64,000 nucleotides of DNA from Gammaproteobacteria bacterium. GTDB taxonomy: Bacteria; Pseudomonadota; Gammaproteobacteria; GCA-002705445; GCA-002716945. Position numbers and translations under genes: made by a program. Location of the stretch: the NCBI GenBank assembly GCA_038142325.1, contig JAYQJW010000002.1, positions 651,328 to 715,327 on the forward strand, read 5' to 3'. This document shows, one piece after another, positions 56,347-59,619 of this stretch (position 1 is its first letter; every line of letters starts with the position of its first letter). Below the pieces are notes generated by a model. That model was given only the letters and a program-made list of their open reading frames with translations. It was not told where the DNA came from and made no database searches.

Positions 56347-58786
<2,440 letters not shown>

Positions 58787-58845
58787 GAAATTGAATTATA
58801 GATTAAGATCATTGCAAATATAAAAAAAATTTGATAAAAAAAAGC

Positions 58846-59286
58846 ATGAGTCTTATAAAAAATTTTCCACATGACGGAATTGTCACTATCAATCGAGTCA
58901 TAATTAAAGAAGGTCATACACTAGATGAACTGCAAGAGAGGGTTGCACTAATGTGTGAAAATGTGAAGACGTATCATTCAGAGACTGGATTTATTGGAGG
59001 AATGGTTGTTTTAAACAGTGGCCAGATTTCAAACGAAGGAAGTAATGTTGGTAAAGCTCTTGATAGTAACTTGAAAAACAAAGAGGCTTTAATCATTACA
59101 TTTTGGAAATCATACGATGATCATGAAAATTCACATAAAAGCGATACTTTTCAGCCACTCTTTCAAAAGGTGATAGATCTTTGTGAGAATGGTAACGAAG
59201 AGACAGTCTACGATATGATGTGGCAAGGGGAAGCCTATTCACCTGAAATGGCAAAAATGGCTCAGATTGCAAAAGAAGATAATTAG
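58846..59286 (+). CDS. Sulfur oxygenase reductase-like small protein (putative non-heme iron, dimeric alpha/beta-barrel fold)
   Basis: IVTINRV...ALMCENV..H.ETGFIG...ITFWKSYDDHENSH...GNEETVY resembles the N-terminal half of SOR (manual alignment only). Confidence 0.6.
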   Translation: MSLIKNFPHDGIVTINRVIIKEGHTLDELQERVALMCENVKTYHSETGFIGGMVVLNSGQISNEGSNVGKALDSNLKNKEALIITFWKSYDDHENSHKSDTFQPLFQKVIDLCENGNEETVYDMMWQGEAYSPEMAKMAQIAKEDN

Positions 59287-59481
59287 ACTATCGGCGGATT
59301 CTTTTTATTTGTACGCTTGTGTCTTCCGCCAATGAGCTTATGCTTTTTTAATTTCTCATCGAGCTGTTCAAGAGTTGTATCCTTCAAGTCTTATCTCGCG
59401 TGATAATGAAATTTGTTTTTTTATGTAAAGTAGAACTAAAACAACTAAAAACGCTAAAACAAGATATATGATATAATCCAT
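59283..59481 (-). CDS. Small single-TM hypothetical protein
   Basis: MDYIIYLVLAFLVVLVLLYIKKQ...; stops at 59368 as written, and an indel near 59391 would extend it to 59283. Confidence 0.4.
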
Positions 59482-59515
59482 TTATACATAATATCATAAA
59501 TATAAAAAATATTAT

Positions 59516-59599
59516 GCCACTGTGGTGGAATTGGTAGACACGAGGGACTCAAAATCCCTTTTTCGCAAGAAAGTATCGGTTCGAGTCCGATCAGTGGTA
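59516..59599 (+). tRNA. tRNA-Leu(CAA), no encoded CCA
   Basis: GCCACTG...CAGTGGT-A, D-loop GGAATTGGTAGAC, anticodon loop CT-CAA-AA, long variable arm, TTCGAGT. Confidence 0.95.
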
Positions 59600-59619
59600 T
59601 TAAAAAAAGGAAATATAAA

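Follow-up and report, generated by a model that had tools for sequence, protein, structure and literature searches.

Does a protein of 146 residues hold the active site of sulfur oxygenase reductase (SOR), an enzyme of about 310 residues built from two halves? The question was raised by an open reading frame (ORF) in a 64,000-nucleotide stretch of contig JAYQJW010000002.1. This whole stretch is called the window, and all positions below are window positions. A sequence-only reading of the window had claimed a half-size relative of SOR at 58831-59286 on the plus strand, and the frame was found there, with 151 codons from a TTG start. The results indicated that the protein very probably belongs to the SOR branch as a single-domain form, retains an intact site, and is specific to sulfur oxidisers.

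Gene and Active-Site Residues

The ATG at 58846 was the likely start of the gene, and residues are numbered from it. The sequence-only reading had counted from the TTG, and its residue numbers exceed the present ones by five (Cys42 corresponds to Cys37, and His98 to His93). The features of the gene were as follows:

58846..59286, plus strand: coding sequence of the half-size SOR relative, 146 residues, with the likely start ATG at 58846, the Met at which homologues also begin, and the stop codon TAG at 59284-59286
58831..58845, plus strand: five extra codons under the upstream TTG start, probably untranslated; full-length relatives have 146-152 residues and are aligned from the ATG
58954..58956, plus strand: codon TGT of Cys37, aligned with the essential SOR Cys31 (family profile, hhalign)
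59122..59136, plus strand: His93-Glu-Asn-Ser-His97, with His93 (59122-59124) and His97 (59134-59136) aligned with the SOR iron ligands His86 and His90, respectively
59182..59184, plus strand: codon of Cys113, aligned with one Cys of the SOR pair Cys101/Cys104
59200..59202, plus strand: codon of Glu119, aligned with the SOR iron ligand Glu114

All the motifs that had been quoted for the protein (IVTINRV, Cys37, GFIG, TFWKSYDD-His93-ENS-His97, Cys113, and Glu119) were readable in the translation, and the spacings given for them, 56 from Cys37 to His93 and 22 from His97 to Glu119, were correct. No signal peptide or membrane segment was obvious at the N-terminus of the 146-residue protein on direct reading of the sequence.

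In SOR, the ligands of the iron are His86, His90, and Glu114, and mutation of any one of the three gives an inactive enzyme (PMC7398979). According to the same source, the C31A mutant is inactive as well, and the activity of C101A and C104A is lowered about tenfold. The SOR residues that the sequence-only reading had named (Cys31, His86, His90, and Glu114) agreed with this source. Cys113 of the half-size protein fell on the first Cys of the SOR pair in the hhalign alignment and on the second in the phmmer alignment.

The conservation of these residues was assessed in 124 distinct sequences, drawn from the window protein, from fetched loci (112 relatives), and from 13 full-length representatives. 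The 13 representatives were picked by eye as full-length from the 32 non-window rows of alignment A1; many representatives of the 50%-identity clusters were fragments or frame-garbled and were left out. Cys37, His93, His97, Glu119, and Cys113 were kept in 123, 121, 121, 123, and 117 of the 124 sequences, respectively. The Cys/His/His/Glu set, whose conservation had been proposed as a check, was thus nearly invariant (each residue in 121-123 of 124). Both histidines were missing from the divergent relatives P0148, P0184, and P0245; P0245 was also without Cys37, and P0184 without Glu119. To judge from the alignment, this joint loss of both histidines looks like a functional site given up, and the side branch formed by the three proteins is probably a non-catalytic offshoot.

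Among 3790 candidates, 3780 were relatives of 80-256 residues, and 143 cluster representatives were obtained among 1.84 billion proteins. The length recorded for the relatives was 124-153 residues. No fused or longer form was found among proteins of 269-2000 residues, which is weak evidence for the absence of such forms. One hit, P0206, a protein of 701 residues, was dropped; it was repetitive and looked unrelated to the family.

The identity across classes was as high as 63-75%. Within the marine clade to which the window protein belongs, the median ratio of nonsynonymous to synonymous substitution rates (dN/dS) was 0.046, a value that rests on 63 of 190 pairs, with the 127 saturated pairs omitted, and on a set that leaves out 12 of the 31 marine loci, which were missed by the pattern filter. 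The low dN/dS showed that the half-size SOR relative is under purifying selection.

Sequence Relationship to SOR

The Pfam SOR family (PF07682) matched the 151-residue form with an expect value (E) of 2.3e-5 and 23.8 bits, and residues 18-147 were aligned with profile positions 4-132 of 300. The top PDB sequence match of the window protein was the SOR structure 6m35 (E 2.4e-4). When 20 family sequences (alignment A2) were used as a family profile against the PDB, the top nine of the 33 matches were all SOR, with E from 1.5e-4 to 3.9e-3 over SOR residues 6-134, and the first match other than SOR was IsdI at E 0.14. Furthermore, a profile-profile comparison was made with 11 full-length SOR genes drawn from genomes of the window organism's class. 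The hhalign probability was 94.8%, with E 5.1e-8 over 114 columns, and Cys, His, His, Cys, and Glu were all aligned in register with SOR; the comparison with SOR profiles that had been suggested thus came out in favour of the relationship.

In addition, the family member P0165, which matches the window protein at E 9.5e-16, was searched against the PDB sequences, and all 11 of its 11 matches were SOR, the best with E 3.7e-8. P0165 passed the Pfam cut-offs of both SOR (28.2 bits) and the antibiotic biosynthesis monooxygenase (ABM) family PF03992 (35.3 bits). The window protein itself reached 14.1-14.2 bits on PF03992, under the cut-off of 23.1. One relative bears a precomputed Pfam SOR tag. The family-profile PDB matches, the hhalign comparison, and the P0165 search therefore agreed with the proposal that the protein is related to the catalytic N-terminal half of SOR and consists of a single domain. 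As measured by these alignments, the likeness to SOR is weak for a single protein, yet specific, and it is solid by profile.

Weak matches to PF22087 (CT0912-like, C-terminal domain) were also seen in five of the 20 family members, with a best E of 1.9e-6. This domain takes its name from a Chlorobaculum tepidum protein, perhaps a further relative in another sulfur oxidiser, C. tepidum being a green sulfur bacterium.

Distribution among Sulfur Oxidisers

The window genome (1.10 Mb, completeness 98.5%, contamination 5.3%) encodes proteorhodopsin, Sat and AprA close together, SoxY and SoxB, and DsrAB. The RuBisCO large subunit was not found in this genome. The picture of a plain mesophile without sulfur metabolism had to be abandoned in view of DsrAB, AprA, Sat, SoxB, and SoxY, and by its gene content the organism is evidently a streamlined sulfur oxidiser, not a bystander. 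The half-size SOR gene, DsrB, and SoxB were likewise present in two cleaner genomes from the organism's family. The SoxB match of the window genome (G000:C2:623988-625598, minus strand, 709.9 bits) contains one internal TAA and starts at profile position 33, and a start-site effect, a sequencing error, or a break may be responsible.

Of 400 genomes sampled from the window organism's class, 73 were matched by the family profile, in 61 of 321 genera. DsrB was found in 124 of the 400 and SoxB in 147. Among the genomes with both DsrB and SoxB, 59 of 108 carried the half-size SOR gene; the figures were six of 16 for DsrB only, six of 39 for SoxB only, and two of 237 for neither. Expressed otherwise, it was found in 71 of the 163 genomes with DsrB or SoxB versus two of the 237 without, in samples that cover part of each group. 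One of these two holders has a full-length SOR; the genome of the other is fragmented and contains a partial SoxB-like match. Full-length SOR was much rarer than the half-size gene (13 of 401 class genomes versus 73 of 400), and eight of the 13 genomes with SOR also hold the half-size gene.

The second class sampled gave a result in agreement with the first. Two of its 186 genomes hold the half-size gene, both among the five with DsrB; the sample was centred on a Magnetospirillum picked as a holder, and with this centre omitted there was one holder, among the four DsrB genomes of 185. The enrichment in sulfur oxidisers that had been expected of the homologues was therefore borne out in both classes. 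The named holders, which are sulfur oxidisers, include Thiohalophilus (with T. thiocyanatoxydans), Thioalkalivibrio, Thiolapillus brandeum, Thioalkalispiraceae, Sedimenticola, Sulfuritalea, Sulfurisoma, Magnetospirillum sulfuroxidans, M. moscoviense, and Thermocrinis, and DsrB was present in all three named holders tested. AprA was not found in any of the five tested holders that lack DsrB, so the half-size SOR gene is not tied to the adenosine phosphosulfate (APS) pathway.

Predicted Fold and Dimer

The AlphaFold2 model of the window protein had a predicted local distance difference test score (pLDDT) of 87.9 and a predicted template modelling score (pTM) of 0.78. The modelled domain was of the ferredoxin-like beta-alpha-beta type, to which a hairpin (residues 57-75) and a C-terminal helix were added. 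The fold was that of the ABM proteins, the dimeric alpha-beta barrel, and ABM structures were matched at Z 12-14.3. The top row of the Foldseek search was IsdI (E 2.1e-6). The structural alignments with SOR, at 121-123 residues, were the longest listed. In the ESM Atlas, the family's own clusters came first, followed by leads to ABM (0.90) and DUF6974 (0.89).

The homodimerisation that had been suggested for the protein was supported by modelling. The predicted homodimer scored 0.84 in three of three runs, versus 0.00 for the best of three controls. Of proteins solved as pairs, 20 of 30 attained the mark set for this score, and of those solved as single chains, one of 23 did. The runs agreed in at least 82% of the contacts, and the partner pLDDT was at least 85. 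This positive outcome may stem from resemblance to solved structures, given that ABM proteins are known to form dimers. The predicted interface comprises swapped strands, 48-63 with 119-133, plus residues 37-38, 93-94, 97, and 119. If the model is correct, the pocket would be completed by the partner chain, much as the SOR pocket lies between its halves.

Gene Neighbourhood and Transcription

The half-size SOR gene was located between queA and a tRNA-Leu gene, as had been described. On the minus strand, queA, tgt, yajC, and secD were assigned upstream by Pfam; tRNA-Leu(CAA) at 59515-59600 lies downstream and is followed by genes for a PfkB-family kinase, pyrF, lapB, lapA, and rpsA. A Pfam scan of the nine window ORFs flanking the gene revealed no sulfur genes among them. 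The earlier claim that no other sulfur-oxidation genes are in the window thus held for these nine, the rest of the window lying outside that scan. Scans for promoters and terminators near the gene gave nothing exceeding shuffled sequences.

The label of accessory gene did not fit. All 31 of the 31 related marine loci share the window's arrangement, with the half-size SOR gene behind the same cluster of upstream ORFs, and the gene is therefore a stable core gene in that clade. Outside the marine clade, no universal partner gene was found across the loci compared. A run of genes for Hsp20, a DnaJ/CbpA-like protein, Hsp20, and DegP stood directly upstream, co-directional and tightly spaced, in 10 of 40 class-sample loci from eight families, and also in further named loci; DegP was immediately upstream in 12 of 81 loci. 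In eight Thiohalophilus-type loci, the order was DegP, a large PAS histidine kinase (missing in one), a single-domain response regulator, and the half-size SOR gene, with ATP sulfurylase just downstream in six of the eight. Among the 138 neighbours scanned, four kinds were linked to sulfur, each in a single locus: a tandem rhodanese, an ArsR-rhodanese regulator, a CCG/4Fe-4S protein, and a YeeE/YedE-type 'sulphur transport' gene.

RNA-library contigs from four metatranscriptome runs of three studies covered parts of the ORF of 151-297 bases with 0-2 differences. These contigs are consistent with transcription of the half-size SOR gene, DNA carry-over in the libraries being possible; the stretches of the ORF without contig coverage carry no meaning either way.

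Comparison with Known Enzymes

The window protein was compared with SOR (PF07682, NF047630; 2cb2, 6m35, 6qpa, and 9rdn) and with three other groups. Over its full length it can be aligned with SOR residues about 6-134, the catalytic N-terminal half, and the three iron ligands (His/His/Glu), the essential Cys, and one of the auxiliary cysteines are in register. Like SOR, it has the dimeric alpha-beta barrel fold and no obvious signal peptide, and the two are often encoded in the same genomes (eight of the 13 with SOR). Unlike SOR, which is a single chain of about 310 residues with two halves, it has 146 residues, and the C-terminal domain is absent. SOR has one active site per barrel, whereas the half-size protein would need a homodimer and would have two active sites per barrel. 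The 24-mer sphere and the chimney elements of SOR are not claimed for the half-size protein, which was modelled as a dimer.

The ABM monooxygenases (PF03992; SnoaB 3kg0, ActVA-Orf6 1lq9, YgiN, and LsrG) share the small size and the strand-swapped homodimer, which is predicted for the window protein. However, they align over about 95-107 residues only, and the window protein has the added hairpin (57-75) and the C-terminal helix. ABM enzymes are cofactor-free and act on organic substrates, and they are without the Cys and His/His/Glu set of the window protein. The haem-degrading monooxygenases IsdG, IsdI, and HmoA have the same fold as the window protein, but the sequence match is weak (IsdI, E 0.14).

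With persulfide dioxygenase (ETHE1/PDO/SdoA), the proposed chemistry would be alike, as a functional analogy only, because the fold is unrelated (metallo-beta-lactamase). Persulfide dioxygenase is a mononuclear non-haem iron enzyme of the 2-His-1-carboxylate type, which uses O2 to oxidise sulfane sulfur to sulfite. Its substrate is free glutathione persulfide, whereas the substrate proposed for the half-size protein is an enzyme-bound cysteine persulfide.

The family appears in the sources as 'hypothetical protein', 'ligand-binding protein SH3' (NCBI and UniRef), 'antibiotic biosynthesis monooxygenase family', and 'HmoA'. The name 'SH3' was rejected; no SH3 family was among the Pfam matches of the window protein up to E 10, and the model has an alpha-beta ferredoxin-like fold. 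In the full-text literature, with subscription journals and supplements lying outside the search, no paper on a half-size or single-domain SOR was found, nor any under 'ligand-binding protein SH3'. In PMC11267869, Alvin_1688 is given as 'antibiotic biosynthesis monooxygenase' in a transcriptome table of Allochromatium vinosum; it may be a member of the family and serves as a lead only. A 90%-identity cluster that includes P0187 mixes family members of 124 residues named 'HmoA' with proteins of 74-87 residues named 'ribosomal protein S21', which suggests either an artefact of the clustering or neighbouring genes whose called frames overlap.

Taken by its sequence features, the window protein falls outside SOR in length, in the curated scores, and in the second auxiliary Cys, and agrees with SOR in the catalytic residues. 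It would best be regarded as a single-domain form of the SOR kind within the ABM-like superfamily, apparently undescribed.

Proposed Function

The mechanism proposed here is that of a cytoplasmic single-domain member of the SOR branch within the dimeric alpha-beta barrel (ABM-like) superfamily. Two copies would pair by strand exchange into a barrel equivalent to one two-domain SOR subunit. Each copy would bind a mononuclear non-haem iron at His93, His97, and Glu119, and Cys37, assisted by Cys113, would carry sulfane sulfur as a persulfide or polysulfide. O2 at the iron would then oxidise the Cys37-bound sulfane sulfur to sulfite, and perhaps thiosulfate, a chemistry most like that of the oxygenase half of SOR. 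The protein would be part of the equipment of Dsr/Sox-type sulfur oxidisers, possibly as an auxiliary or protective route that clears excess reactive sulfane sulfur. Such a role, in place of a main energy pathway or core energy step, is suggested by the stress genes nearby and by the patchy distribution among Dsr organisms. For the homodimeric iron-dependent sulfane-sulfur oxygenase as a whole, the chances are judged to be about even; the homology, the conservation, and the phyletic link were observed, and the dimer was predicted by modelling.

Several points weigh against this assignment. The Pfam SOR score of the window protein, 23.8 bits for the 151-residue form or 23.2 bits for the 146-residue form, misses the cut-off of 25, and on the NCBIfam model SulOxRed (NF047630) it reached 23 bits (E 3.4e-5) versus a curated cut-off of 400. 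Only one auxiliary Cys (Cys113) was present versus the two of SOR (Cys101 and Cys104). An H-x3/4-H stretch in the helix concerned is common in ABM proteins, and Cys37, His93, His97, Cys113, and Glu119 would share one pocket by their alignment to SOR alone. The best match in VIA-align was SnoaB, a cofactor-free ABM oxygenase (Z 14.3, root-mean-square deviation (rmsd) 1.4, 97 residues aligned). SOR structures ranked lower, at Z 10.5 (6qpa, rmsd 3.8, 121 aligned) and Z 11.2 (2cb2, rmsd 2.8, 123 aligned), and the structural aligner paired the model with the C-terminal and not the N-terminal half of SOR. Furthermore, 59 of the 124 DsrB genomes were without the half-size SOR gene; being missing from about half of them, it is not essential to the Dsr pathway. 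Kin share genes, so the phyletic counts overstate independence. Most neighbours were unrelated housekeeping genes, and the Hsp20/DnaJ/DegP context fits other roles too.

The sequence-only reading had held that ordinary ABM or IsdG proteins as best structural matches would speak against a relationship to SOR. Such proteins, IsdI and SnoaB, were indeed on top, but this was judged non-discriminating. Fold ranking cannot separate SOR from the ABM idea, because SOR consists of two such domains. Sequence profiles, as far as the alignments go, can separate them, and the profiles choose SOR.

Alternative Explanations

It might be, though this is judged unlikely, that the protein is a non-catalytic sulfur relay or sensor. 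Cys37 would then be a persulfide carrier like TusA or DsrE, or the metal site would act as a sensor of O2, sulfide, or redox state that signals to a partner, for example the single-domain response regulator encoded alongside in some genomes. A stand-alone receiver-domain gene was directly upstream in 12 of 81 loci, and in seven of those 12, all Thiohalophilus-type, it was preceded by a large PAS-type histidine kinase gene; locus L093 has a PAS/GAF hybrid kinase. The ArsR-rhodanese regulator and the YeeE/YedE-type sulfur transporter gene, adjoining in one locus each, would suit a relay or sensor as well. The observed restriction to sulfur oxidisers suits this reading too, and an identity of 63-75% across classes suits a protein with several binding partners. 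However, the full iron-ligand set of an enzyme is nearly invariant along with the Cys, no partner is conserved across the family, and the window's own clade is without an adjoining regulator.

It is rather improbable that the protein is an ordinary ABM enzyme acting on an organic substrate, for example a quinol- or polyketide-type monooxygenase or a haem degrader of the HmoA/IsdG type. In that case, the SOR-like residues would have a different role, and the association with sulfur oxidisers would be due to common descent. The top fold matches (SnoaB, RslO4, IsdG/IsdI, and LsrG) are of this kind, Pfam ABM matched six of the 20 family members with a best E of 1.4e-8, and some members are named 'antibiotic biosynthesis monooxygenase' or 'HmoA' in the sources. 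Nevertheless, the profiles placed SOR far above ABM and IsdG (E 1.5e-4 for SOR versus 0.14 for IsdI), and all 11 matches of P0165 were SOR. The NCBIfam haem oxygenase model NF009840 gave only 11.1 bits versus a cut-off of 119, so that membership of that family was not indicated. Moreover, ancestry alone hardly explains a gene that is found in two of 237 class genomes without DsrB or SoxB, yet also in DsrB-bearing members of the second class and in Aquificota.

A stress protein of the protein quality-control network, such as a metal-binding holdase or a redox buffer with no specific sulfur chemistry, is very improbable: it would account for the tight co-directional place behind the Hsp20, DnaJ/CbpA-like, Hsp20, and DegP genes in 10 of 40 class loci (eight families) and for an M48 (HtpX-like) peptidase upstream in two of nine second-clade loci, but this context is missing from most loci, including the window's whole clade, and the SOR-type residues and the restriction to sulfur oxidisers are left unexplained.

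Implications of an SOR-Branch Protein

SOR has been regarded as uncommon, an enzyme of thermoacidophilic archaea and of a small number of bacteria. Here, a half-size relative that shares the SOR active-site residues was found in 73 of 400 class genomes, nearly all of them of sulfur oxidisers, and it survives in a streamlined marine genome of 1.1 Mb. If the half-size SOR relative is active as an oxygenase, an enzyme is missing from the models that describe how sulfur is oxidised in oceans, sediments, soda lakes, and wastewater, and a small, tractable model would be available for SOR chemistry and for the evolution of SOR through duplication of a domain. Otherwise, its gene remains useful as a strong and cheap marker for sulfur oxidisers, and its function would be worth finding.

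A further step, which is possible but doubtful, is to regard the protein as both a working iron-dependent sulfane-sulfur oxygenase and a living example of the single-domain form that gave rise to the two-domain SOR by duplication. This step also takes in the presence of the gene in more than two-fifths of the sampled Dsr/Sox-type oxidisers, including an abundant streamlined ocean clade. Were it true, an unrecognised O2-dependent step would be added to mesophilic sulfur oxidation. By its sequence the half-size protein may be either an ancestral form or a truncated SOR. The unusual conservation across classes might reflect dimers that assemble into a larger SOR-like cage.

Additional Observations

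Close to the half-size SOR gene, a 37-codon ORF (59381-59491, minus strand) was read by eye between the gene and tRNA-Leu. Its N-terminal stretch is hydrophobic, and it could encode a small membrane protein. One RNA-library contig spans 59230-59383. Further upstream, the longest frame of tgt (56653-57858, minus strand), with a TTG start, overlaps the end of queA (57764-58786, minus strand) by 95 bases. The Pfam TGT match starts at residue 44, so the true start of tgt is probably further downstream.

In sulfur oxidisers of several families, the Hsp20, DnaJ/CbpA-like, Hsp20, and DegP cluster has a divergent ribonucleotide reductase gene beside it (loci L058, L061, L088, L095, L100, L106, L108, and L112-L116). 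The ribonucleotide reductase of L112 bears a LAGLIDADG domain, which suggests an intein.

Finally, the class sample contained a second clade of SOR-like proteins (L009-L013), which are divergent but full-length, at 312-336 residues. Its members scored about 204-218 bits on Pfam SOR versus 446-481 bits for canonical SOR and were about 31-34% identical to the canonical proteins, and the five active-site residues were kept. In the P0165 alignment, PDB entry 9rdn ('Sulfur oxygenase reductase') resembles this clade.

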